Shown here piece by piece: positions 3,819 through 59,035 of a DNA stretch of 60,341 nucleotides (its first letter is position 1; each line of letters opens with the position of its first letter). This DNA is from a virus. The translations under genes were made by a program, and so were the position numbers. Under the pieces are notes generated by a model. That model ran no database searches. It was not told the DNA's origin and worked only from the letters and a program-made list of their open reading frames with translations. The DNA lies in IMG/VR virus record IMGVR_UViG_3300029256_000003; one strand, written 5' to 3'.

Positions 3819-4552
3819 GCGAGAACAAATTAAACGTAATTGTACCGAAAGATTATAACGGTGCACCAATTGAAGTAGTATTGAGAGAGGGAGAAGCCCC
3901 CGTAGCACTTGACCCGAAAGAGCCGGAAAGAGTAGTTATCAATGGAACGATAGATGCACCTTTCAGATGGTTGGAAAAGCGTGTCGAACTGATTAATCAA
4001 AAATCGACCAATCTCATTGTGAACCGTGATAAGATGGGGTTAGCATTAACTATTGATGAAACCAACTACTATCAGACTGAAATCAACGGTATTTTACAGG
4101 CTTCCAAGGAAATGATGGAGTTTGGCATTAACACGGATAAGAAATGGGAACCTATTAAGCTGTCTAAGTTCATCAAAATGCACCGTGCTTTCTTTACCGA
4201 TAAATCGCAAAATATGATGCTTGTTTCTACTTTAAAGAACTTCAAGGCAAAAGTAAACCAAGACATCGAACGCAGTAAGGAGGAAAATGGCAGCAAAGTT
4301 GACAACTACTCGCAGGTGGTTGATTCTAATTTGCCGAAATCGTTCAAACTGAATATCCCTCTTTTCAAAGGCTTTGACAATGAAGAGATAGAAGTCGAGA
4401 TTTACGCTGATGTAGACGGTCGAGATGTTTCTCTTTCTCTTGTGTCGGCTGGCGCAAATGAAGCCATTGAGGAATACAAGAATAAAGTCATTGATGTACA
4501 GTTGGATGCCATCAGACAGATTGCACCGGACATCGTAATCATCGAAGTATAA
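3815..4552 (+). CDS. Hypothetical protein
   Basis: 245 aa. The start overlaps the upstream stop (ATGA coupling). No domain recognised. Confidence 0.65.
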   Translation: MSENKLNVIVPKDYNGAPIEVVLREGEAPVALDPKEPERVVINGTIDAPFRWLEKRVELINQKSTNLIVNRDKMGLALTIDETNYYQTEINGILQASKEMMEFGINTDKKWEPIKLSKFIKMHRAFFTDKSQNMMLVSTLKNFKAKVNQDIERSKEENGSKVDNYSQVVDSNLPKSFKLNIPLFKGFDNEEIEVEIYADVDGRDVSLSLVSAGANEAIEEYKNKVIDVQLDAIRQIAPDIVIIEV

Positions 4553-4561
4553 CTTTGTTAA

Positions 4562-4593
4562 CCTGCCTGTCCGGTCTGTGAAGATGGGGCGGG
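4562..4593 (+). promoter_or_regulatory. Conserved-loop hairpin, copy a (stem CCTGCC/GGCGGG, loop contains GGTCTGTGAAGATGG)
   Basis: Stem 4562-4567 pairs with 4588-4593. The loop core 4573-4587 recurs at 58276-58290 and, reverse-complemented, at 47658-47672, each time within a different complementary stem. Confidence 0.55.
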
Positions 4594-4600
4594 CGAAAAT

Positions 4601-4810
4601 GGTGGTATGGCGGAACAACGAGAGACGCTAAAGTGAAGCTCTTATAGATAGGTTGGTAAGTCAATGTGTTACGGTTAGCCGTAAAAAGAAATTCAAACCA
4701 CTGAGTTAATAACGGGTAATGCCGAATAGACCGCAATGTCAATGAATAAACTACTTGGTGAAAGTCCAAGAAAAACTCCTATCATGCAGGTGCAAGTCCT
4801 GCTACCACCT
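4601..4810 (+). ncRNA. Giant tRNA-like element (about 210 nt)
   Basis: - Acceptor: GGTGGTA (4601-4607) pairs perfectly with TACCACC (4803-4809).
- D-arm: Leu-type TGGCGGAACAACGAGAGACGC.
- T-arm: perfect GCAGG-TGCAAGT-CCTGC (4786-4802), immediately 5' of the acceptor strand.
- About 155 nt intervene, including a second T-arm-like hairpin CTTGG-TGAAAGT-CCAAG (4756-4770).
- No canonical anticodon arm found. Confidence 0.4.
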
Positions 4811-4860
4811 CATAAATGTGAGCCACACATAAATGGCAAGGGTTAGTAAATAATGGTTGT

Positions 4861-4888
4861 GCCCCGGAGAATACGCTTCGGGGCTTTT
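4861..4888 (+). terminator. Rho-independent terminator
   Basis: GCCCCGGAG-aatacg-CTTCGGGGC followed by TTTT, at the end of a 348-nt ORF-free region. Confidence 0.7.
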
Positions 4889-4900
4889 AATTAGGTAAAT

Positions 4901-5194
4901 ATGAAGAGAGTAAGTAGTAAACAAGCAAAACTAAATAGAGAAATGGATAAGATAAAGAGAAACCTATCTCCTCATTGTTGTTTGTGCGGTCGTCCGGCTG
5001 TTGACCCGGCACATTTGTTGCCTCGTTCTCTTTATCCTGAATACTATATTGAAGAATGGAATGTAGTTCCAATGTGTAGAAATCATCACGACCTATATGA
5101 TGGAAGCCGAGAGTTTCGCAGAAGGTGTACTGAATTAGTAAATATAGTCCGCTTACATGATGAACAGGCGGCTAATAGATATTTTGGCTTATGA
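4901..5194 (+). CDS. HNH endonuclease-like protein
   Basis: 97 aa. CCLCGRPAVDPAHLLPR...VVPMCRNHHDLYD shows CxxC...H...N...H spacing typical of HNH/NinG-like nucleases. Confidence 0.65.
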   Translation: MKRVSSKQAKLNREMDKIKRNLSPHCCLCGRPAVDPAHLLPRSLYPEYYIEEWNVVPMCRNHHDLYDGSREFRRRCTELVNIVRLHDEQAANRYFGL

Positions 5195-16530: not shown

Positions 16531-17040
16531 ATGAAGTTATCAGTAAAACAGGAAAAATTTTGTAATTACTATATTGAGTGTGGAAATGCGTCTGAGGCTT
16601 ATAGGAGTGCATATCCCAACAGTAAAAAATGGGCTGATAAAACTGTATGGGAAAGAGCATCAGTACTGCTAAAAAATAACAAGGTTTTGACAAGGGTAAA
16701 AGAACTTCAGGAAGAACTCAAAAAGAAGTCGGACATTACAAAAGAAGAAGTTTTAAATATGCTTAGAAGCTTTATGTATGCTGATATACGTAATTTCCTT
16801 ACCATAAAGGACGGCAATGTTACTTTCAAAGATAGTGAAGACTGGACTGACGAAATGGCAATGCAAGTCGAAAGCGTGAAACAGGGGAAAGAGGGGATTG
16901 AAATAAAACTGAATGGGCGTACATGGACTATCCAACGACTTTGCAAAATGCTTGGTTTTGATTCTCCGCAAGATATGAATATAAACATTGCATCTCCTAT
17001 GACCAAAGAGGAAGCCAAACGAATAATAGAAGACTTATGA
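16531..17040 (+). CDS. terS: Terminase small subunit
   Basis: N-terminus is MKLSVKQEKFCNYYIECGNASEAYRSAYP, the classic P27-type TerS signature. The stop overlaps the TerL start. Confidence 0.8.
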   Translation: MKLSVKQEKFCNYYIECGNASEAYRSAYPNSKKWADKTVWERASVLLKNNKVLTRVKELQEELKKKSDITKEEVLNMLRSFMYADIRNFLTIKDGNVTFKDSEDWTDEMAMQVESVKQGKEGIEIKLNGRTWTIQRLCKMLGFDSPQDMNINIASPMTKEEAKRIIEDL

Positions 17041-19886
17041 TGGGGGAAGGATATGATTATATACGGGCGTTTTGCCTATCAGGGACGTTAAACTATACGA
17101 GATATTTCTTTAAAGCAAGATTCGGTCGCAAATTTGTAGTAAATGACCATCATGTAAAGATATGCCAGGCTCTTGATGATGTGATTGACGGAAAGATAAA
17201 GAAGCTGATTATAAACATAGCTCCAAGATATTCCAAGGCTATTGATAATGAAACACCGATGCTAACCATGAATGGTTGGAAAAAGGCTTCAGAAGTACAA
17301 ATTGGAGATTATCTTTTTGGAAGTGATGGTAAGCCGACTAAGGTACTTGGAGTTTACCCGCAAGGTATAACAGATGCTTATAATGTTGAATTTTCCGATG
17401 GAACTCATCTTGTTACAAGTGGGGATCATTTATGGGCTGTTCATGAACGTAAGAGATGGGATAAACTTAAAGGTCAACATAAAGTAATAAAGCGTACAAA
17501 AGAAATGTCTGAAAGGCTATATGATTCTGATGGACATAAAAAATATGACATCCCGATTATAAAGCCTATTTCTCCTATAAGAAATGAGGAAAAGATATTG
17601 CCAATTGACCCATATCTTTTCGGATATTGGCTAGGTAATGGTTCGAGCTATAAGGCTGAATTTTGCACAATGGATATTGAAGTAGTTCAAGCATTTAGAT
17701 CCAAATATCCGATAACAATTAGGACTCATCAAAATGCAGGGAAAGCTACAGAATATGGAATTCGTGGAGGATTTGTGAGTACGCTTAAAAAACTTGGGGT
17801 AATCGGTAATAAACACATTCCAATTCAGTATCTATTATCCGATATTGACAGCAGATTTGCACTTCTTCAAGGGATGATGGACTCTGATGGGACATGCGGG
17901 GCAATTTCTCATCAATGTTCTTTATGTTTTGTAAATGATCGCTTAAGGAAAGATGCAAGGACTCTAATAGAAAGTTTGGGAATGTATTGTACGGAATGTG
18001 GCCCTATTATAATGATTCGTAGTCCTAAGAATCCCTTCAGATTAGAAAGGAAAAGCCGAAAGTATAAGCCTTTAAATAAGCGGCATTTTTCAAAACGATT
18101 TATTACGGCTATTACTAAGGTTCAAGATAGAGAGACTATATGTTTTAGAGTAGACTCCGAAGATCATCTTTTTGCAGCTGGAAGAGATTTAATACTTACT
18201 CATAATACAGAATTAGTGGTTAAAAACTTTATTTCATATGGTCTTGCAGTCAATCCTTCTGCCAAATTCCTTCATTTATCTTATTCAGATGATCTGGCCA
18301 ATGATAATTCAGAAGAGGTAAGAGATATAGTTAAGTCGGAAGAATATAAGCGTGTATTCCCTTATGTAGACATAAAGAAAACAAGCGATGCAAAAAAGAA
18401 GTGGTATACAACAGAAGGCGGGGGAATGTACGCAACAGCTTCTGGGGGACAAGTCACAGGTTTTGGTGCTGGTGCAGTTGATGATGAAAACGATCTATCC
18501 AAAGAATTAGAAGAGTTCAAACCGTCATCTAAATTTGCAGGTGCATTGATTATTGACGACCCGGTTAAACCTGAAGATGCAATATCGGACACTCCAAGAG
18601 AAAAGGTAAACCAACGGTTTGAAACAACTATAAGAAACCGTGTAAACTCACGGAATACCCCTATTATAATCATTATGCAAAGACTTCATGAGCATGATCT
18701 TTGCGGGTATTTGATGGAAACAGAGCCGGGAGAATGGACTGTCTTATCTCTTCCGGCAATAATATATGAAAATGGCAAGGAGAAAGCTTTATGGGAGTTT
18801 AAACATACCATCGAAGAGTTGCATAGGATGCAGAGGGTGAATAGCTATGTTTTTGAAACCCAATATATGCAGAATCCAACTCCTATGGAAGGCTTAATGT
18901 ATGGAAAGTTTAAGACTTATGAGGCTATTCCGATAACCAATAGAGCAATAAGGAAAAACTATACAGATACAGCCGATACCGGAAGCGATTATTTATGTTC
19001 TATTGATTATATCGATACAGAGATAGGGAATTTCATTCTTGATGTCCTTTTTACACAAAAGGAGATGGAATTTACCGAACCGGAAACTGCTAAAATGCTC
19101 ACTAAAGACCAAATATCCAAGGCAAATATAGAAAGCAATAATGGAGGAAGGGGATTTGCCCGGAATGTAGAGAAACAAATGCGGATGATTGGCAACTCCA
19201 AGACTCAAGTAAGCTGGTTTCATCAGTCAAAAAACAAAGAGGTTCGGATCTTTACCAGATCTTCCGAGGTGATGAACCTTACTTATTTCCCTGCTGATTG
19301 GGAAAGGAGGTGGCCGGAATTTGCGTCTCAACTGAAAACATACAGGAAAAGGGGGAAAAACGCTCACGATGACGCATGCGACGCTCTTACGGGAACTGTG
19401 GAGATGAGAGGTGAGGTAGATGTTCTATACTACAAGAAAGAGGAAATAGGGGTAAATAATCAAATTTTTGTTGAAATACACCCCAATATAAACGGATTGT
19501 TTATAATGGTTTCTTATTGCGTTGCTGGCGGAAAGATGTTCATGATTGACTGCTTGTTCTCCGATTCGCTAATATCTGTTGACCAACTTATTAATAAAAC
19601 AGACGGGAATGTACAAATGGAGATTCCCGTAGAGATGAAACATTACGCAGACGATTATAGGAAGCTTATAGATCATGATTTGTGGGTAAGAGAAGAATCA
19701 ACAGATAAGAAAACTATGATTGAATCGTATAAATCGATTATTAAAACAATCTACTTCCCGGAATCCGATGATTCATTTTCTGCATTAATCGCTAACATGT
19801 CTGATTATGATGGTATTAACAGCTTTGAAGGCATGTATGTATTATCTTGCGTGTGCGCTCGTGCAAAATCTTCAAAAGTGATATAA
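17037..19886 (+). CDS. terL: Terminase large subunit, interrupted by an intein
   Basis: - After conceptual splicing the extein P-loop reads INIAPRYSK|TELVV.
- Nuclease/ATPase C-terminal region shows typical terminase features (IIDDPVKPED, IIMQRLHEHDL).
- 949 aa, versus about 626 aa without the intein. Confidence 0.9.
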   Translation: MMGEGYDYIRAFCLSGTLNYTRYFFKARFGRKFVVNDHHVKICQALDDVIDGKIKKLIINIAPRYSKAIDNETPMLTMNGWKKASEVQIGDYLFGSDGKPTKVLGVYPQGITDAYNVEFSDGTHLVTSGDHLWAVHERKRWDKLKGQHKVIKRTKEMSERLYDSDGHKKYDIPIIKPISPIRNEEKILPIDPYLFGYWLGNGSSYKAEFCTMDIEVVQAFRSKYPITIRTHQNAGKATEYGIRGGFVSTLKKLGVIGNKHIPIQYLLSDIDSRFALLQGMMDSDGTCGAISHQCSLCFVNDRLRKDARTLIESLGMYCTECGPIIMIRSPKNPFRLERKSRKYKPLNKRHFSKRFITAITKVQDRETICFRVDSEDHLFAAGRDLILTHNTELVVKNFISYGLAVNPSAKFLHLSYSDDLANDNSEEVRDIVKSEEYKRVFPYVDIKKTSDAKKKWYTTEGGGMYATASGGQVTGFGAGAVDDENDLSKELEEFKPSSKFAGALIIDDPVKPEDAISDTPREKVNQRFETTIRNRVNSRNTPIIIIMQRLHEHDLCGYLMETEPGEWTVLSLPAIIYENGKEKALWEFKHTIEELHRMQRVNSYVFETQYMQNPTPMEGLMYGKFKTYEAIPITNRAIRKNYTDTADTGSDYLCSIDYIDTEIGNFILDVLFTQKEMEFTEPETAKMLTKDQISKANIESNNGGRGFARNVEKQMRMIGNSKTQVSWFHQSKNKEVRIFTRSSEVMNLTYFPADWERRWPEFASQLKTYRKRGKNAHDDACDALTGTVEMRGEVDVLYYKKEEIGVNNQIFVEIHPNINGLFIMVSYCVAGGKMFMIDCLFSDSLISVDQLINKTDGNVQMEIPVEMKHYADDYRKLIDHDLWVREESTDKKTMIESYKSIIKTIYFPESDDSFSALIANMSDYDGINSFEGMYVLSCVCARAKSSKVI
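17238..18206 (+). mobile_element. Intein (323 aa) with LAGLIDADG homing endonuclease, class-3-like signature
   Basis: - N-terminal Hint block: AIDNETPMLTMNGWKKASEVQIGDYL.
- Block B: SGDHLW.
- LAGLIDADG motifs: LFGYWLGNGSS and LLQGMMDSDGT.
- Block F: ETICFRVDSEDHLF.
- C-terminus LILTHN, followed by +1 Thr. Confidence 0.85.
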
Positions 19887-28153: not shown

Positions 28154-28936
28154 TTATGCGGCTTTAGAAAGCTCTTTAAACTTGTTCAAGAAGTAAACCT
28201 GCCCCTTGCCTGTTACGTAACAGGTGTGCTTGATAAATGCAAGGTTACCTCCCTGCATTACCGCATTTTCAGTTACGAAGAAAAGGAACATCTTCGCCGC
28301 CTTTTGCGTAGGGGTGTAATCGTTGTCATACTTTCCCTTTGATTTGCTCCACCGCTTATGGCGGATAAGATACTTCTTCTCTACCAACCAATCATACAGG
28401 CGGCACTCTCCGATTTTGAATCCGTTCTGCGTGATTAGCTTGGCAAGGTCACGAACAAGGATATTAGTCGGGGAATTCTTCACGCACTCGGTAAACACTA
28501 CCGCAGGCTTCGTTTCTTCGATGATTGCCTGTTTCTCCACTTCCAGCTTTTTAATCTTCTCTTCGGATGCTTCCAAACGCTTTTGAAGAATCTGTTGGGA
28601 GCGCATGAGGATATAATCGTCATTTTTGAGTAACGCTTCACGTCTATTGAACTCGTTAATGAACCTTTCTTTGAACTCTCCGGCTTTTGTGCCTGTGTAA
28701 CCCATGACGAGGAAAGAAAAACCGTCCTTTGTCATTTCGTAGTAGTGGTAAACTTGACCATTTTGTGGGTGGGTGTAGGGGGTATGCGCAAAATTGCGCA
28801 CCCTAAAATCATCTGAACATGAGAGGTTTTCAATATCTCTCATTACCTTACTATGTTCTTTTCCGAACACTTCTGCAACGATTAATGAAGTAGTAACATC
28901 GTTGCCATTACTGTTTTGAATTACTAATTCTGCCAT
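28154..28936 (-). CDS. Rha-family phage regulatory protein / antirepressor-like
   Basis: From the internal ATG at 28936: MAELVIQNSNGNDVTTSLIVAEVFGKEHSKVMRDIENL is the Rha N-terminal signature. The upstream part of the track ORF covers a promoter and terminator. Confidence 0.75.
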   Translation of the reverse strand: MAELVIQNSNGNDVTTSLIVAEVFGKEHSKVMRDIENLSCSDDFRVRNFAHTPYTHPQNGQVYHYYEMTKDGFSFLVMGYTGTKAGEFKERFINEFNRREALLKNDDYILMRSQQILQKRLEASEEKIKKLEVEKQAIIEETKPAVVFTECVKNSPTNILVRDLAKLITQNGFKIGECRLYDWLVEKKYLIRHKRWSKSKGKYDNDYTPTQKAAKMFLFFVTENAVMQGGNLAFIKHTCYVTGKGQVYFLNKFKELSKAA

Positions 28937-29113
28937 GTGAAATCGGATTATTTTGGCATTATAGGCAAGAAAAAACGGCTGCCCTTTCCCGTTATCCTTC
29001 ACCTCACAAGGCAGTGGGCACATTAATGCTCCACACGGGGGTAGCAGCCGAATATCATTTAATATTCTAACTAAAAAAGAATATGTTAAGGCATAAAAAA
29101 TGCCTACGCAAAT

Positions 29114-29169
29114 GGCAGGCTTCCGCTTGCCTTGTGAATTGAAGGATGTTGCAAAGGTAGCAACACTTT
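29114..29169 (-). promoter_or_regulatory. Minus-strand promoter TAccTTTG plus leader hairpin/T-run upstream of the rha-like gene
   Basis: CAAAGGTA on the plus strand at 29162-29169. Hairpin GCCTGC..GTAGGC at 29122-29140, followed on the minus strand by T6 (29114-29120). Confidence 0.5.
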
Positions 29170-29273
29170 CTGTATTTACAAATAATTTCTTCATTTTCTT
29201 TCAAATTTTCGATATAGTTGTGGCTGTCCGGCATTGAAACGGACTGCTGTAAATGAATTAGGAGGGGGGAGGG

Positions 29274-30128
29274 TTATGCTGCTGTATTCAGCTCACCTTT
29301 TATCTGCTTGATGGCTTTCTTTACATTCCATCCATTCTCATACAAAGCTATAATAAACCTTCTTCCTTTCTCCGTCCAAACGGTGTACGAGTTTGTCCCT
29401 GTGGAACCGTCCGAACGGGTGAAGGTATTGGTGCGGGTGTCGTGTAGCTTCCATGCAGAATAAGGGGAGTACAGAAGCCATTGCCCAGATTGATAAAATA
29501 TTATTCCGGCTTCATTCAGTTTCTTGTGTAGTTTCTCCGCAACCATTCCGATTTGTTTAGCTACCTGTGTGGAAGTAAGCGTGTTGACCGATTGCAGGTG
29601 GGTGTCGTAGTAGTTGACTTTCGGGGCTGCCTGCTTGATTTCCTTTTCTTGCAACTCGATAGTGGCTTGCTGTTGTTCCGTTTCGGCTTCGAGTTGCTTT
29701 AGCCGTTCTTCACGCTTTGCAAGGGTGGCTTGTGCGATGGTGAGAGCACGTGCCATGATTTCTTCGGGAGTATCGTCCTGTTTGGTGGAGATGTATCCGC
29801 CGGTGGTTCTGACTTCGTGAAGAATTTGTTTTACTCCCTTCTTGAATTGCTTGGCAATTGGTTTACGGGATTGCATGAGGACTTCATATAATCCGTCCTC
29901 GGTAAGCATCCAAACTTCCTGATTTCCACCGGGGGTCGTAACAATATTACGAACCTTTTCATCATCATCTACGAGATTAGTTAACTTGCTTGAATTGCTT
30001 TCGGAGTATTCTAATACTTCTCCTACTTCTTTGGCTAAGAACAATGGATTTTCTGCCGTTCCATAAACGGTGAATTGGTGTCCAAGCAATTCGGTTTGTT
30101 TTAGGACTTGAATAGGATTTGTTGACAT
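29274..30128 (-). CDS. Antirepressor-like protein (BRO-N + KilA-C type)
   Basis: The N-terminus QVLKQTELLGHQFTVYGTAENPLFLAKEVGEVLEY is BRO-N-like. The C-terminal half is KilAC-like. Confidence 0.75.
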   Translation of the reverse strand: MSTNPIQVLKQTELLGHQFTVYGTAENPLFLAKEVGEVLEYSESNSSKLTNLVDDDEKVRNIVTTPGGNQEVWMLTEDGLYEVLMQSRKPIAKQFKKGVKQILHEVRTTGGYISTKQDDTPEEIMARALTIAQATLAKREERLKQLEAETEQQQATIELQEKEIKQAAPKVNYYDTHLQSVNTLTSTQVAKQIGMVAEKLHKKLNEAGIIFYQSGQWLLYSPYSAWKLHDTRTNTFTRSDGSTGTNSYTVWTEKGRRFIIALYENGWNVKKAIKQIKGELNTAA

Positions 30129-30133
30129 AACAA

Positions 30134-30326
30134 ATAAAAAAGCGCCTACTACGAGCTGTCAACAAATCCATAAGATTAATGTCGGAGGCGTTTCCGTATC
30201 TCCACTCGGTAGGCGCAATATCTTTAAAACGATACTACTATAATATGTCTTGGCAAAAAAATAACTCTATATGGTAGAGCCATAAGAGTTTGCCGCTCTT
30301 ATGAATTTGTTGACACCGCAAACATA
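30134..30326 (-). promoter_or_regulatory. Minus-strand promoter TAtgTTTG and structured leader with terminator-like hairpin upstream of antirepressor 3
   Basis: CAAACATA on the plus strand at 30319-30326. An 8-bp stem 30142-30149/30209-30216 is followed (minus strand) by T6, immediately before the ATG at 30128. Confidence 0.5.
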
Positions 30327-47262: not shown

Positions 47263-47651
47263 AACGTCTGTTATACATCCTGACCATTTTCCTGATGTCA
47301 GAAATATGCTTCACAAGCTGCCGGAACATCAAGTCTGTTCCGGTAGAGACCGTGAAGACGGAGTACAAGACACGTGATAGCATCCGTTTTGACAGCATCT
47401 ATGAGCATGACAGTATATTCCTGTTCGTAAAGGGAGATACTGTCTACAAAGAGAAATATCGGTATAAATACCGGTATCTGACAATTAACAAGACAGATAC
47501 GGTTATGCTGACCGATTCTGTGCAGATCCCTTATCCGGTGGAGAAACAGCTAACCCGGTGGCAACAGATGAAAATAGAGCTGGGCGGTTGGGCTGTTGGC
47601 GTAATTATAATACTATCTATTGTATTAATGCTTAAGATGTTTAGAAATTAA
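47259..47651 (+). CDS. Lipoprotein with C-terminal TM anchor (unimolecular spanin candidate)
   Basis: N-terminal lipobox MKRLLYILTIFLMSEICFTSC. C-terminal TM helix LGGWAVGVIIILSIVLMLKMF. Confidence 0.55.
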   Translation: MKRLLYILTIFLMSEICFTSCRNIKSVPVETVKTEYKTRDSIRFDSIYEHDSIFLFVKGDTVYKEKYRYKYRYLTINKTDTVMLTDSVQIPYPVEKQLTRWQQMKIELGGWAVGVIIILSIVLMLKMFRN

Positions 47652-47681
47652 CCGGCACTATCTTCACAGACCGTTTCCGGT
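47651..47681 (-). promoter_or_regulatory. Conserved-loop hairpin, copy c (stem ACCGG/CCGGT)
   Basis: The minus strand reads ACCGGaaaCGGTCTGTGAAGATAGTGCCGGT. It shares a 20-nt identity (ACGGTCTGTGAAGATAGTGC) with 58274-58293. Confidence 0.55.
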
Positions 47682-47858
47682 ATGAAAAGTTTAAGTTTTA
47701 CTCACATAAAAATTTCCAATGGAAAAAGGTTCATAAAGAAAGGAGGATAAAATGATACATTAATTAATACTAAGCAATAAGTTTATCCGGTAAAGTAGAA
47801 GGCCGGATATCGTAGCAAATGTAGCTCTTTTTTTGGGGGGGTAGAGTAAAAAGAACCC

Positions 47859-53494: not shown

Positions 53495-53529
53495 TACTTT
53501 TGCTTAAAATTGTTGCTCTATTGTTGCTC
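53495..53529 (+). promoter_or_regulatory. int promoter TActTTTG and second arm-type repeat
   Basis: -7 box at 53495-53502. GTTGCTCTATTGTTGCTC at 53512-53529. Confidence 0.5.
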
Positions 53530-53563
53530 GAAAAAGAAACACCTAAAGAATACACATAAAATT

Positions 53564-54898
53564 ATGGCCACATTTAAAGCAGAAGTGCAGAAGCACCAAA
53601 AAAGAAAAGATAAGACCTGGAATGTAAAAATCCGGGTAACTCATAATAGAGTTGTCCGAAGGTTACCAACCTCTATATATGTAAGCCAAGAGGATTTGAC
53701 GGTCAAGAATTTCAAAATTAAGAATCAGGAAAAGGTAGATCAATGCAATGAGATAATCAATTACTATCGTAATAAATGCAGTAAGATTGCTCTTTCTATA
53801 GATAGTATGTCGATAGACGAATTGGTCGATTATCTAAACCAAAAGGAAGAGAATGAAAAAAAAGATATTGATTTTGTATCTTTTGCAAAAGACTATATTA
53901 ATGATCTTGAAAAACAAGGTAAAAAGGGAACCGCTTCCAATTATAAAGGTATGCTCCAGTCTTTGATAGAGTTTATGAAAAGAGAGATTATATCTATTTC
54001 CGAAATAACCTATTCAATGCTGGTTAATTATTCGAAGTTTTTGATAGAAAAAAAAGAGAAGGCTAATTTAGAAGCTATAAAAAAGGGGAGGCGTATCACA
54101 ACCAATAGAATGCTATCTAACTATACCGCATGTATTCGGCATTTGCACAAGGAGGCTAAATTAAAATATAACGATGAAGAGAAAGGAATAATATTAATAC
54201 CTTGGTCGCCATTCATGAAATTCAAGGTTCCTAAAGAAGAGACTACTAGAAAAAGAGCGCTATCAGCACAGACGATAAAAGTAATTAATGATTTACCCTA
54301 TATAATGCGGCATAACGCCCGGAAAAATGTAGAGCAAAATTGCAGGTATAATCTCGCAAAAGATGTATTTATCTTGTCTTTCTGCCTGATAGGTATGAAT
54401 TCTGCCGACTTGTATAGCTGTGATAATATAAGCGATAATACGATTCAATATTTCAGAGAAAAAACAAGAACCAGACGTAGGGATAACGCAGAAATTCATG
54501 TAGATGTAAACCCATTTATTGCCGATCTGCTAGAGAAATACAAAGATCATACAGGGAAAAGAGTGTTCAGATTCTATCAAATGTATGCTGACTATAAGAA
54601 CTTTAATAAAGCTATCAATAAGGGCCTTAAGGAGATTGAGAAGAGCATTAACGATATAAATAAGTCCAATAAGAACGGTGAAATCATAGAAGATTTGGAA
54701 TTTTATGCTGCACGTCATTCATGGGCTACTATTGCGGCTAATGATCTTAAAATAGACAAGTATGTAGTCCATTCCGCCTTAAACCACGTTGACGAATCTA
54801 TGAGAGTGACCGAAATTTATATCAAGAAGGATTTTAGTGCTATAAATGAGGCTAATTCTAAAGTTATCGATTATGTGTTTAATAATAACGTGTATTAA
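53564..54898 (+). CDS. int: Tyrosine site-specific integrase
   Basis: Bacteroidota-type N-terminal arm-binding region (MATFKAEVQKHQKRKDKTWNVKIRV). C-terminal catalytic residues: ...YAARHSWAT...LNHV...VTEIYI. ATG at 53564 is preferred over TTG at 53510. Confidence 0.85.
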   Translation: MATFKAEVQKHQKRKDKTWNVKIRVTHNRVVRRLPTSIYVSQEDLTVKNFKIKNQEKVDQCNEIINYYRNKCSKIALSIDSMSIDELVDYLNQKEENEKKDIDFVSFAKDYINDLEKQGKKGTASNYKGMLQSLIEFMKREIISISEITYSMLVNYSKFLIEKKEKANLEAIKKGRRITTNRMLSNYTACIRHLHKEAKLKYNDEEKGIILIPWSPFMKFKVPKEETTRKRALSAQTIKVINDLPYIMRHNARKNVEQNCRYNLAKDVFILSFCLIGMNSADLYSCDNISDNTIQYFREKTRTRRRDNAEIHVDVNPFIADLLEKYKDHTGKRVFRFYQMYADYKNFNKAINKGLKEIEKSINDINKSNKNGEIIEDLEFYAARHSWATIAANDLKIDKYVVHSALNHVDESMRVTEIYIKKDFSAINEANSKVIDYVFNNNVY

Positions 54899-55371: not shown

Positions 55372-56142
55372 TTATAGCAGGGCATCGCTAACAATATGCT
55401 GTTTAACTATCCATAAACTTCTCACCTGTTCTATCTCTATATCAAAATCGTCAAATTCCTCGCTATTGATAGAATGGGCGATCCAATATCTGCAAGACAA
55501 TGATTGCTCTTTGTGTCTACGCAATACTTTGATATGGCCATGATATTCTCCCGTGTCTTTGTCCTCTATTACTATTCCAAATATATTTCCAAACGGAATC
55601 ATATTTGGGTTTTCTCTTGGGAGTGTGTATTTTTTTAAAGCGACCCAGCATCCAGAAGGAAGAGTAGGAGACATAGAACGTCCTACCACTTGGGCGATAC
55701 CTTCACAATCTTTACAGTCCGGCAGGTACCAGTATCTTGTAATATCTTCCGTAGTATTGATTAACTGTGTTTGCCCGGCTGCAAACCTGAAACTAACTTG
55801 TGGCAGCAAATGGAACCCTTTCTTCTTTGCATCTCGATATTCTTCTTCTGATGTGATTGATATACCAGAGGATGTAGGTAGGTTTATAGGGGGATCTGAT
55901 AATTCTTTCTTATCTTCTTCTTTGAACATAGAACCGTTGCCGGTGAGAATGTAATTAGCATTAACTTGCGGATATGCCTCGCAAAGCCCAACTATTATAT
56001 CTGAAGATATGCTTTTGGTTACTCCTTTTTTGTAATGAGACACTTTGGCTTGTGCGTTTTTTACGCCTTTTTCTTTTTCAAGCGTATAAGCTGTAATTTG
56101 AAGTTCATTAATCACTTCTAAAAAACGTTCATCTCTTTCCAT
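55372..56142 (-). CDS. CI-like repressor: N-terminal HTH + C-terminal S24 (LexA-like) autopeptidase
   Basis: 256 aa. N-terminal XRE-like HTH, and C-terminal VVGRSMSPTLPSGCWVALKK (S24 Ser motif). Divergent from the operator/promoter region. Confidence 0.85.
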   Translation of the reverse strand: MERDERFLEVINELQITAYTLEKEKGVKNAQAKVSHYKKGVTKSISSDIIVGLCEAYPQVNANYILTGNGSMFKEEDKKELSDPPINLPTSSGISITSEEEYRDAKKKGFHLLPQVSFRFAAGQTQLINTTEDITRYWYLPDCKDCEGIAQVVGRSMSPTLPSGCWVALKKYTLPRENPNMIPFGNIFGIVIEDKDTGEYHGHIKVLRRHKEQSLSCRYWIAHSINSEEFDDFDIEIEQVRSLWIVKQHIVSDALL

Positions 56143-58179: not shown

Positions 58180-58235
58180 GCCCTACTGACGGATTGAACG
58201 GCATCCGATAGCGAGAATCGGGTAGGGCACTTTTT
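58180..58235 (+). terminator. Terminator-like long hairpin with T-run
   Basis: GCCCTAC (58180-58186) pairs with GTAGGGC (58222-58228), enclosing sub-hairpin CGGAT..ATCCG and followed by T5. Confidence 0.5.
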
Positions 58236-58269
58236 GCAGTGTTTTATTTTTTATTTGTGTGGTTCTATA

Positions 58270-58300
58270 GTGTACGGTCTGTGAAGATAGTGCACTTTTT
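58270..58300 (+). promoter_or_regulatory. Conserved-loop hairpin, copy b (stem GTGTAC/GTGCAC) with T-run
   Basis: The loop holds GGTCTGTGAAGATAG (58276-58290). T5 at 58296-58300. It sits 5 nt upstream of the tRNA-like element. Confidence 0.55.
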
Positions 58301-58305
58301 AATAA

Positions 58306-58409
58306 GGAGAATTGGCGGAATCAGTAGACGCACCACTCGATAATAGGAATGTCAACCTTAGATGTGGCGAGCTTGACAACTCATCTTGGTGCAAATCCAA
58401 GATTCTCCA
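58306..58409 (+). ncRNA. tRNA-like element (104 nt), Leu-type D-arm and long variable arm, non-canonical expanded anticodon region
   Basis: - Acceptor GGAGAAT/ATTCTCC is perfect.
- D-arm is TGGCGGAATCAGTAGACGC.
- T-arm is CTTGG-TGCAAAT-CCAAG.
- 35 nt sit where a 17-nt anticodon arm is expected.
- A CTTAGAT loop (anticodon TAG) is closed by only 4 bp, with a 20-nt insertion on its 5' side. Confidence 0.5.
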
Positions 58410-58434
58410 CAATAATAATCAAATAATTAATCTT

Positions 58435-58596
58435 ATGAAACGTACTCCACTATTAGCAATTTGGACAATATCATTTGCAATGGTGATATTGTTTGCAAAC
58501 CGATTAAATATCGTTTTCTGGCTTTCATTTACTGTGTTTGCATTATGTTCCATATACATGGAAAAGCACCAAAAGAGACTAAAGAGAGAAAAGTGA
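58435..58596 (+). CDS. Small two-TM membrane protein (53 aa)
   Basis: ATG at 58435 (MKRTPLLAIWTISFAMVILF...). The upstream part of the track ORF overlaps the tRNA-like element. Confidence 0.45.
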   Translation: MKRTPLLAIWTISFAMVILFANRLNIVFWLSFTVFALCSIYMEKHQKRLKREK

Positions 58597-58657
58597 TATA
58601 GGTATGCGGTTCGAGAGAATAGCTGTTTTATGTGTGAAAATTCGTGTTTCGATTAAG

Positions 58658-58756
58658 TCCTGTATCTGACGTGATACAGGAAACGGGCGTAAAGTGGCAG
58701 TGTGTGAGCTCACCTGTCCGGTTGGTTTATTGTCGGTTCGAATCCGATTACGCCCA
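58658..58756 (+). ncRNA. Perfect 9-bp hairpin followed by a 72-nt tRNA-like element lacking a foldable anticodon arm
   Basis: - Hairpin: TCCTGTATC-tgacgt-GATACAGGA (58658-58681).
- Acceptor GGGCGTA (58685-58691) pairs with TACGCCC (58749-58755).
- Canonical T-arm: GTCGG-TTCGAAT-CCGAT.
- A8 is present instead of U8.
- I could not find a 5-bp anticodon stem. Confidence 0.35.
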
Positions 58757-58783
58757 CAAATCAATAATTTAAATATTTGTATT

Positions 58784-59035
58784 ATGAAAGGAATAAAAGG
58801 GAAAAAAGGGTTTGATAAAAGCAAAGAGAGAATACGTATAGAAAAAAAACTTCTAAAGAAAGAAGACGATGTTAAATTTGACCATAGCGATGAAATGTTA
58901 TTAAAAATACGTAGAATCGCTATCGAACTGAATAGAAAAGCTAGAGAAGAGAGGATTATTGAAAAGGGGCAACGTTTATATACGGTGGTGAACAATAAAG
59001 AAGCCGAATATATTCAGGTAGTTAGAAACTATTAA
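58784..59035 (+). CDS. Lys/Glu-rich hypothetical protein
   Basis: 83 aa from the ATG at 58784. Confidence 0.5.
   Translation: MKGIKGKKGFDKSKERIRIEKKLLKKEDDVKFDHSDEMLLKIRRIAIELNRKAREERIIEKGQRLYTVVNNKEAEYIQVVRNY

Follow-up and report, generated by a model that had tools for sequence, protein, structure and literature searches.

A tRNA-like RNA element with an expanded variable arm in an exchangeable cassette of Bacteroides phages

The locus and the architecture of the element

We analysed a 60,341-nucleotide (nt) viral sequence (IMG/VR record IMGVR_UViG_3300029256_000003; the window), in which a 348-nt intergenic gap at 4553–4900 carries a 210-nt tRNA-like element. The window is the genome of a temperate Bacteroides phage. 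It encodes an integrase (53510–54898) and, on the minus strand, a repressor (55372–56142), together with portal, capsid and tail genes and an early module of Sak4, SSB, NinB, RusA, a helicase, and DnaD-like and DnaC-like loaders. The gap is bounded by a gene ending at 4552, whose product is a PHROG 11501 protein with a homologue annotated as DUF2303 family in phage BS-TP2, and by a gene starting at 4901 that encodes a 97-amino-acid (aa) HNH protein. From 5′ to 3′ the gap holds a TAACTTTG box, a leader hairpin, the linker GAAAAU, the 210-nt element, a small hairpin and a terminator (Table 1).

An earlier reading of the sequence alone had proposed a giant tRNA-like structure here. Its perfect 7-bp acceptor stem, Leu-type D arm, perfect T arm abutting the acceptor, and the small hairpin and strong terminator (4861–4888) that follow are all present where they had been placed. 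The leader hairpin is likewise present, although not at 4562–4593 as proposed; its lower stem was re-placed to 4564–4572/4587–4595. The extra sequence described between the D and T arms is also real and measures 157 nt.

The D arm (UGGCGGAAC...GACGC) is followed 1 nt later by a mini-hairpin, and the large domain beyond it ends 2 nt before the T stem. ARAGORN calls a tRNA-Leu(aag) once 4661–4777 are removed, which places the extra sequence in the variable-arm position of a class-II frame. The element is a class-II (Leu-type) tRNA frame in which the anticodon arm is vestigial and the variable arm is expanded into a four-hairpin domain. The loop of the mini-hairpin differs in sequence and length among relatives (UUACAUC, UGACAUG and one of 10 nt), and no anticodon is conserved among them.

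Table 1. Features of the gap and of the 210-nt element (window coordinates)
Feature	Position	Strand	Remarks
Left cassette edge, TAA stop and CTTTGTTAACC	4550–4563	+	Holds the Bacteroides -7-like box TAACTTTG
TAACTTTG box	4550–4557	+	Overlaps stop codon of upstream gene
Leader hairpin	4564–4595	+	9-bp lower stem; invariant apex C-GGUCU-GUGA-AGAU
Acceptor 5′ strand GGTGGTA	4601–4607	+	Pairs with 4803–4809; predicted RNase P site 4600/4601 (U-1, G+1)
Leu-type D arm TGGCGGAAC...GACGC	4608–4628	+	Stem 4610–4612/4626–4628; D loop without GG
Vestigial anticodon arm AAG-UGAAGCU-CUU	4631–4643	+	3-bp stem in anticodon-arm position
Expanded variable-arm domain, ~137 nt	4647–4783	+	Closed by GAUAGG (4647–4652)/CCUAUC (4778–4783)
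Payload hairpins	4669–4684, 4713–4724, 4729–4740, 4754–4770	+	RNAalifold and pair counts
Helix	4690–4695/4702–4707	+	Weakly supported
Inner T-arm-like hairpin CUUGG-UGAAAGU-CCAAG	4754–4770	+	Like T arm of 58306 element
T arm GCAGG-UGCAAGU-CCUGC	4786–4802	+	U54 G55 C56 A57 A58; abuts acceptor 3′ strand
Acceptor 3′ strand TACCACC and discriminator U4810	4803–4810	+	CCA not encoded
3′ trailer	4811–4860	+	Conserved; includes small hairpin
Small hairpin ATGTG-AGCCA-CACAT	4816–4830	+	
Intrinsic terminator	4861–4884, T-run to 4888	+	9-pair stem, 7 G-C

The expanded arm had been described as colinear with a second tRNA-like element, at 58306. One part of that proposal survives: the inner hairpin (CTTGG-TGAAAGT-CCAAG) shares 16 of 18 positions with that element's T arm, a match reached by 2 of 500 shuffles. 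The CCACT, TAATA and AATGTCAA blocks were rejected as not above chance; the AATGTCAA match was attained in 104 of 500 shuffles, and these letters form, in homologues, the 3′ side of a small hairpin. Judged by the resemblance of the inner hairpin, the element appears to be partly composite.

The gap was also confirmed to lack an acceptable open reading frame (ORF). Those overlapping it are antisense, TTG-start frames of 76 aa and 128 aa, a plus-strand frame of 36 aa (4736–4846), and others of 25–61 aa on either strand. The 76-, 128- and 36-aa ORFs are not conserved in relatives. One-nucleotide indels in an A-run near 4685–4693 give close relatives elements of 209, 210 or 211 nt, and the ATG at 4736 is missing in three homologues (L406, L421 and L266). 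Hence overlapping ORFs are broken in relatives, and no conserved small ORF that would account for the region was found in them.

Standard detectors do not recognize the element. ARAGORN reported no tRNA or transfer-messenger RNA (tmRNA) gene in the whole 60-kb window, and Rfam gave no match at 4400–5000 even at E values up to 10. At threshold, no Rfam family matched the element or the relatives scanned, apart from the generic tRNA model on BS-TP2; at permissive thresholds, the region and six relatives yielded only a sub-threshold match to the small RNAs (sRNAs) FopS/GibS, in L421. The intron mode of ARAGORN, which the sequence-only reading had also recommended, called some relatives as intron-containing tRNAs. 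The window has seven matches to a pattern of acceptor plus T arm alone, shuffled sequences having 1.4 on average, and three of the seven are G+C-rich and credible. Since this simple pattern is only modestly rare and the single-sequence fold is unremarkable, the case rests on comparison with relatives.

Covariation, the leader hairpin and the cassette

We aligned eight sequences, including diverged homologues with the same payload (the sequence within the expanded arm; L406, L413, L418, L421 and L266), and judged pairing by RNAalifold and explicit pair counts, with slid partners and 500 shuffles as controls. Paired cells make up 97.4% in the eight homologues compared with 30–44% for slid partners. 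Nine pairs have changed on both sides, and none of the 500 shuffles reached the observed values. In the acceptor stem three pairs are altered on both sides (GGTGGTA/TACCACC versus GTCAGTA/TGCTGAC), the D-stem pair C11–G24 becomes U–A in four of the eight homologues, and two T-arm pairs are altered on both sides in L418. The absence of covariation in the acceptor, D and T pairings, which would have spoken against the proposed structure, is thus not what relatives display. Within the payload, hairpin 4713–4724 changes from CGG/CCG to CAG/CUG (one pair altered on both sides) and hairpin 4729–4740 also has one such pair. The closing stem GAUAGG/CCUAUC and hairpin 4754–4770 are invariant in the homologues; for the latter this says little because the same sequence served as search bait.

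The loops of the frame also change together. In 31 Leu-type frames, a D loop with GG accompanies a UUC T loop in 23 and a D loop without GG accompanies a UGC T loop in 7, with one exception; UUC never occurs without GG. L421 carries the window's payload on a frame with canonical GG and UUCAAAU. This pattern fits co-evolution of the 18–55 and 19–56 contacts and implies a real tRNA-like L-shape.

The lower stem of the leader hairpin consists of nine pairs, three of them G.U, around the 13-nt core GGTCTGTGAAGAT (4573–4585). Of 212 distinct contexts of the exact core, 93 enclose it in a stem of at least 5 bp, and the register is the same in each. Stem positions 2–5 show every one of the six pair types. 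G.U pairs number 70 and A.C pairs 2; this excess of G.U over A.C points to selection on RNA of this strand. The invariant apex, C-GGUCU-GUGA-AGAU-A-G, is a GNRA tetraloop on a short helix, and the variant apex CGUCC-GUGA-GGAUA is compensatory within the apical helix. In the window stretches scanned, the apex CGGUCUGUGAAGAUAG matched no Rfam family. The window has three copies of the motif, at 4573 (+), 58276 (+) and 47660 (-), in hairpins 4564–4595, 58270–58295 and ~47650–47682, and others occur in Bacteroides, Prevotella, Muribaculaceae, Dysgonomonadaceae and other genomes (loci L289–L405). The hairpin is an RNA motif of the Bacteroidales at large, which could act as a specialized terminator, as a 3′-end cap or as a protein-binding site like boxB.

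Downstream of the hairpin, a tRNA-like frame is present in 69 of 226 distinct contexts, compared with 6 for upstream, 1 for reverse-complement and 5 for shuffled controls. Although the search required only U54 and A58, almost all T loops found were UUCGA (37) or UGCAA (26). The gap from hairpin to frame is 3–11 nt (mode 5), and U precedes the frame at -1 in 23 of 34 families. ARAGORN accepts as tRNAs 11 of 89 distinct hairpin-following elements and 2 of 59 Leu-type frames. In L421 and L087 an apex-variant hairpin is preceded by the 5′ region of a FopS/GibS sRNA and followed by a tRNA-like body, which suggests, from the order of these parts, a phage-borne sRNA and a tRNA-like element in one unit. 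L421 scores 31.2 bits for FopS (E = 0.0066) and 28.7 bits for GibS, the latter alignment running through the GUGA-capped hairpin; both lie below the Rfam gathering thresholds. FopS consists of a 5′ seed and a terminator hairpin, and a copy has been noted in a phage (PMC11697453). No FopS/GibS 5′ seed was found upstream of the window's three hairpins.

Four parts of the locus (hairpin loop, 3′ trailer, T arm with acceptor, inner hairpin) served as queries against IMG/VR, and the matches revealed a cassette in more than 100 viral contigs, made up of left edge, hairpin, variable tRNA-like body, trailer and terminator. The left edge, TTTGTTAAC, directly follows the stop codons of different upstream genes, with TTTGTT(A/T)AC conserved. 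The slot between leader and trailer accommodates at least 12 unrelated bodies of 62–255 nt. The scaffold GGTGGTA...TACCACC alone occurs in elements of 145, 148, 156, 209–211, 221 and 253–255 nt with differing payloads. The window's element type is present in ~60 contigs, element and flanks being 93–96% identical, and few of these contigs share neighbouring genes at the DNA level: the 400 nt on each side fall into at least 10 clusters upstream and at least 10 downstream, and the window's own context is unique. The trailer is 96–97% identical in ~200 contigs irrespective of the preceding body. Two unannotated faecal phage contigs have near-identical flanks around different bodies with covarying acceptor stems. 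The homologue L418 is a chimera whose acceptor stem is mismatched. The element has the behaviour of a mobile module under selection.

A related element is found in a cultured Bacteroides phage, BS-TP2 (PQ571275.1; L211 4641–4748). This 108-nt Leu-type element is unannotated, lies at the equivalent position between DUF2303-family and NinG genes and follows a leader hairpin with a different loop (GGAAAGA). It scores 40.1 bits on the Rfam tRNA model, which matches the acceptor, D and T arms and skips the anticodon arm.

At the protein level the cassette usually lies inside a recombination and replication module, and in most contigs NinB, RusA or a homologue of the window's unnamed 1738–2487 ORF is encoded within 2.5 kb. 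The sequence-only reading had stressed that an HNH gene follows directly. This is true of the window and is not a rule: of 66 related contigs, only 5 encode a homologue of the 97-aa protein within 2.5 kb. The idea that the cassette is consistently tied to the HNH gene, or to one particular neighbour, was dropped, neighbours varying among contigs. Long-range pairing of leader with trailer was likewise dropped, as no leader–trailer covariation was found among variants. Some relatives (L100, L123, L132, L080, L176 and others) have an extra conserved module of ~60–65 nt, closed by GGGGACA...UGUCCCC, between body and trailer.

Relation to known RNAs and possible functions

The element resembles class-II tRNA-Leu in its 7-bp acceptor, its D arm (UGGCGGAA...GACGC), its 5-bp T stem with 7-nt loop (U54...A58) stacked on the acceptor, and its five-helix layout; some Bacteroidales genomes have a canonical tRNA-Leu(UAA) after the same leader hairpin (L351). 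Unlike tRNA-Leu, it has no functional anticodon arm: the stem is 3 bp and the loop, UGAAGCU, has G33 and C37 and varies in relatives. It also differs in having G55 in the T loop and no G18–G19 in the D loop, and in its variable arm of ~137 nt; normal class-II variable arms are ~10–25 nt. It falls short of the tRNA detection thresholds of ARAGORN and Rfam (RF00005). The discriminator is unconserved, and because a single scaffold can carry A, G or U at N73 the RNA is probably not aminoacylated. The element is not a decoding tRNA.

Nor does it belong to any other family we compared; it lies outside the tRNAs, intron-containing tRNAs, tmRNAs, YrlA RNAs and FopS/GibS sRNAs. A tmRNA was rejected because none was detected by ARAGORN or Rfam, pair 3–70 is U–A and not G.U, and the sole plus-strand ORF is unconserved. 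YrlA RNAs are similarly non-decoding mimics of the T and D arms, some members are phage-encoded, and one with a 7-bp acceptor is cut by RNase P and receives CCA (PMC4201824). In YrlA, though, the two ends pair into the stem that binds Ro60, and the Ro60 gene is adjacent, whereas here the ends form the acceptor stem; membership was rejected on that ground and for want of an Rfam match. No Ro60-like match appeared among 36 window ORFs scanned, mostly against PHROGs. The likeness to FopS/GibS is limited to the leader hairpin of relatives, and this class was rejected since the window gave no match and only L421 gave sub-threshold ones. A possible resemblance of GGTGAAAGTCC to cobalamin riboswitches or RNase P RNA found no support in Rfam.

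The closest parallels are other tRNA mimics, and by analogy the element resembles YrlA, mascRNA, herpesvirus tRNA-like RNAs and T4 stable RNAs. MALAT1–mascRNA is a non-aminoacylated tRNA-like part of a longer transcript, in which RNase P or RNase Z sets the neighbouring ends and a stabilizing structure lies upstream of the cut. The sequence here is compatible with such a processing element, having a 7-bp acceptor, U-1/G+1 and a hairpin ending 5 nt upstream; cleavage is predicted. The tRNA-like units of murine gammaherpesvirus 68 are comparable processing elements. These systems are eukaryotic with tRNA-like parts of ~60–75 nt, whereas our element has a bacterial host and a large extra domain. 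T4 species 1 and 2 (rnaC, rnaD) are stable RNAs of ~120–140 nt with tRNA-like termini, encoded in a tRNA cluster, matured together with the tRNAs and with no known function; their phage lineage and host differ from those of the element. In engineered tRNA scaffolds the tRNA frame gives folding, processing and stability to an inserted RNA. There the insert sits in the anticodon stem of a device without an established natural counterpart, whereas here it occupies the variable-arm position.

We favour, with moderate confidence, the reading that the element is a phage-encoded, non-decoding tRNA(Leu)-derived RNA that would be matured by tRNA-processing enzymes and act as a stand-alone decoy or a scaffolded payload. 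Of the options in the sequence-only reading, this retains a non-decoding, tRNA-derived mimic, partly composite. An intron-containing, decoding tRNA found no support. The transcript would read through from the upstream gene or start at the weak -7-like box, and its fold would comprise the leader hairpin and, after it, the tRNA-like body. RNase P would cut between U4600 and G4601, with 3′ trimming after 4810 and possibly addition of CCA. An acceptor stem of 7 bp is among the main determinants for RNase P, and there is a tRNA-like Y RNA that this enzyme cleaves and that receives CCA (PMC4201824). The product would be a stable tRNA-shaped RNA unable to decode. Its tRNA-like top half could serve as a substrate or ligand for tRNA-recognizing proteins, and the large arm, conserved within each type, may be a functional payload on a natural ‘tRNA scaffold’. 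A role as decoy or binder in phage–host conflict seems most plausible. The same cut would leave an upstream RNA ending in the conserved hairpin.

A stand-alone role is favoured because the payload structure is selected, the types spread intact among phages, the polymorphism is of the kind seen in arms races, and published work describes both a defence system that cuts a class-II tRNA in its variable loop and homing endonucleases located next to phage tRNA genes (PMC13096335). Defences that target tRNAs, and phage tRNA genes as counter-measures to them, are a current topic (PMC13096335). A broader version of this proposal is tentative: a hypervariable, horizontally exchanged ‘tRNA-scaffolded’ RNA cassette whose top half would hijack RNase P, trimming and possibly CCA addition, and whose interchangeable payloads, the remodelled anticodon or variable arms, some of which may dimerize through palindromic loops, would be decoys or binders against tRNA-recognizing factors such as tRNA-cleaving defence nucleases, while the upstream RNA would be GUGA-capped as in MALAT1–mascRNA.

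Several points weigh against a stand-alone RNA. Transcription, cleavage by RNase P and addition of CCA are predicted from sequence, as is the role. The promoter is putative: TANNTTTG has 86 matches in the window where 67 are expected, too many for the TAnnTTTG box to be counted as evidence, and only ~8 nt separate the start of the conserved cassette from the hairpin. Folded as a single sequence, the element does not stand out (z = -1.6), and the alignment is small, with its eight sequences partly gathered through conserved substrings. The flanks are conserved more widely than any single body and so could be the functional parts. Payloads are unrelated between cassette types, which fits a dispensable payload. 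So does L164 (~10223, oriented strand), which has a ~190-nt insertion resembling a miniature inverted-repeat transposable element (MITE), with long terminal inverted repeats, in a type-A payload.

Several of these points also serve the main rival, which is possible, if doubtful as a full account, and compatible with the stand-alone reading: the element would be a processing signal only. The top half would recruit RNase P and a 3′ nuclease, leaving the upstream RNA hairpin-capped and freeing the trailer as a small RNA, with the arm incidental, as in MALAT1–mascRNA or herpesvirus tRNA–miRNA transcripts. The wider conservation of leader hairpin and trailer, and the tolerance of one payload for a MITE-like insertion, are what this predicts. 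So is the arrangement of the top half, the only features that all body types have in common, with a hairpin 3–11 nt before +1 and U at -1. The hairpin moreover behaves as a 3′-end hairpin elsewhere, a T-run following it in 41 of 93 copies, and L421 reads from a FopS/GibS 5′ region through the hairpin into a tRNA-like body. A pure processing handle, however, would not need a conserved arm, and here the payload hairpins show compensatory changes and the ~137-nt arm is ~95% conserved over ~60 contigs in varied contexts. Since much shorter bodies, of 62–74 nt, are found at this locus, processing does not call for a long body. The window hairpins lack the FopS/GibS seed, and no covariation between leader and trailer was found.

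It is improbable that the locus holds a decaying phage tRNA-Leu gene or a selfish DNA cassette, spread by recombination or homing at its flanks and without a role as RNA. The degenerate anticodon arm, the insertion in L164, the chimeric L418 with its mismatched acceptor and the HNH genes common in this genome region would all suit such decay. Decay does not explain compensatory changes in the acceptor, D stem, T arm and payload hairpins, the covarying D and T loops, or the dozens of independent non-canonical frames that retain an intact top half. The ratio of G.U to A.C in the leader hairpin likewise marks strand-specific selection at the RNA level.

A functional decoding tRNA whose extra sequence is an intron is very unlikely. 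ARAGORN's intron mode does call some relatives, and deletion variants of the element can be called tRNA-Leu(aag) or tRNA-Phe(aaa). The calls from intron mode and from 4187 systematic deletions were nevertheless forced and inconsistent, and the intron-containing tRNA was rejected: just 16 of the 4187 variants received any call. In the putative anticodon loops, position 33 is G and position 37 a pyrimidine, the anticodon is unconserved in relatives, and the extra sequence lies at the variable arm and not in the anticodon loop, unlike that of an intron-interrupted tRNA. Rfam matched neither Intron_gpI nor another ribozyme. Group I introns are at least ~200 nt long, and the insert here is ~137–155 nt.

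Hardly more credible is a DNA-level site (attachment, origin or recombination) or a small protein gene, for although the locus lies in a recombination and replication module and tRNA genes are common integration targets, the integrase is ~11 kb away around a presumably circular genome, both halves of the tRNA frame are present with a mutated T loop, selection acts on base pairing including G.U, and 1-nt indels together with the loss of a start codon disrupt the ORFs.

We found no description of these elements in the literature searched and no Rfam family; they apparently constitute a large, undescribed group of interchangeable RNAs of Bacteroides phages that resemble tRNAs. The window's three elements all escape ARAGORN, and none reaches the threshold of an Rfam family; as even that of the cultured BS-TP2 is unannotated, the RNA repertoire of gut Bacteroides phages is undercounted. 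The set is a natural experiment on the tolerance of the tRNA fold, in which acceptor, T arm and elbow are fixed while anticodon and variable arms are remodelled with up to ~200 extra nt, and is a possible natural equivalent of the tRNA scaffold of biotechnology. A swappable body between conserved flanks is typical of arms-race loci, and this may be one; if the RNAs are decoys, they would represent a new RNA-based counter-defence. The leader hairpin, for its part, is an unexplained host-wide motif across Bacteroidales, linked to the FopS/GibS sRNAs by sequence neighbourhood.

Other tRNA-like elements and features of the window

The frame of the window's second element (58306–58409, plus strand; 103–104 nt) is Leu-type, and its T loop reads UGCAAAU. 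A helix joins the anticodon-arm loop (UGUCAA, 58349–58354) to the variable-arm loop (UUGACA, 58374–58379) and covaries in relatives (UUCCAA/UUGGAA and UGCCAA/UUGGCA); a stem CCAC/GUGG changes to GCAC/GUGC. Elements of this type occupy the cassette locus in other phages, and GenBank phages searched with 58240–58800 gave no match. A DUF2693-FD RNA (58180–58228, plus strand; Rfam, 77.8 bits) lies ~45 nt upstream of the second leader hairpin. The third element (58685–58756, plus strand) scores 26.1 bits on the Rfam tRNA model against a threshold of 29, with only the acceptor stem and T arm matched, and is preceded by a different 8-bp hairpin (58659–58680) and the linker AAAC.

Among short relatives, GC-rich palindromes take the place of the anticodon loop (L014/L025/L105, L339/L400/L376 and L003/L378), and substitutions preserve the palindrome (UGCGCA to CGCGCG, GGUGCACC to GGCGCGCU, GUGCAC to GCGCGC). 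The enrichment is modest, 21 families against 14.1 expected. The palindromes suggest that such relatives may dimerize through loop–loop pairing. Three nested elements of ~131 nt (L024, L062 and L080) have a Val/Thr-like frame in which a long anticodon-type stem ends in a second T arm and D arm, permuted and without an anticodon loop, which suggests an RNA with two tRNA elbows.

Elsewhere in the window, a 949-aa ORF (17037–19886, plus strand) has weak matches to an RNaseH-like terminase and to a Hint domain, both under the Pfam cut-offs, and may encode a large terminase with an intein. A c4-2 RNA (30140–30216, minus strand; Rfam, 47.2 bits) lies just upstream of two Ant-like anti-repressor genes on the same strand (29274–30128 and 28154–29194), a layout that resembles the c4/ant immunity region of P1.

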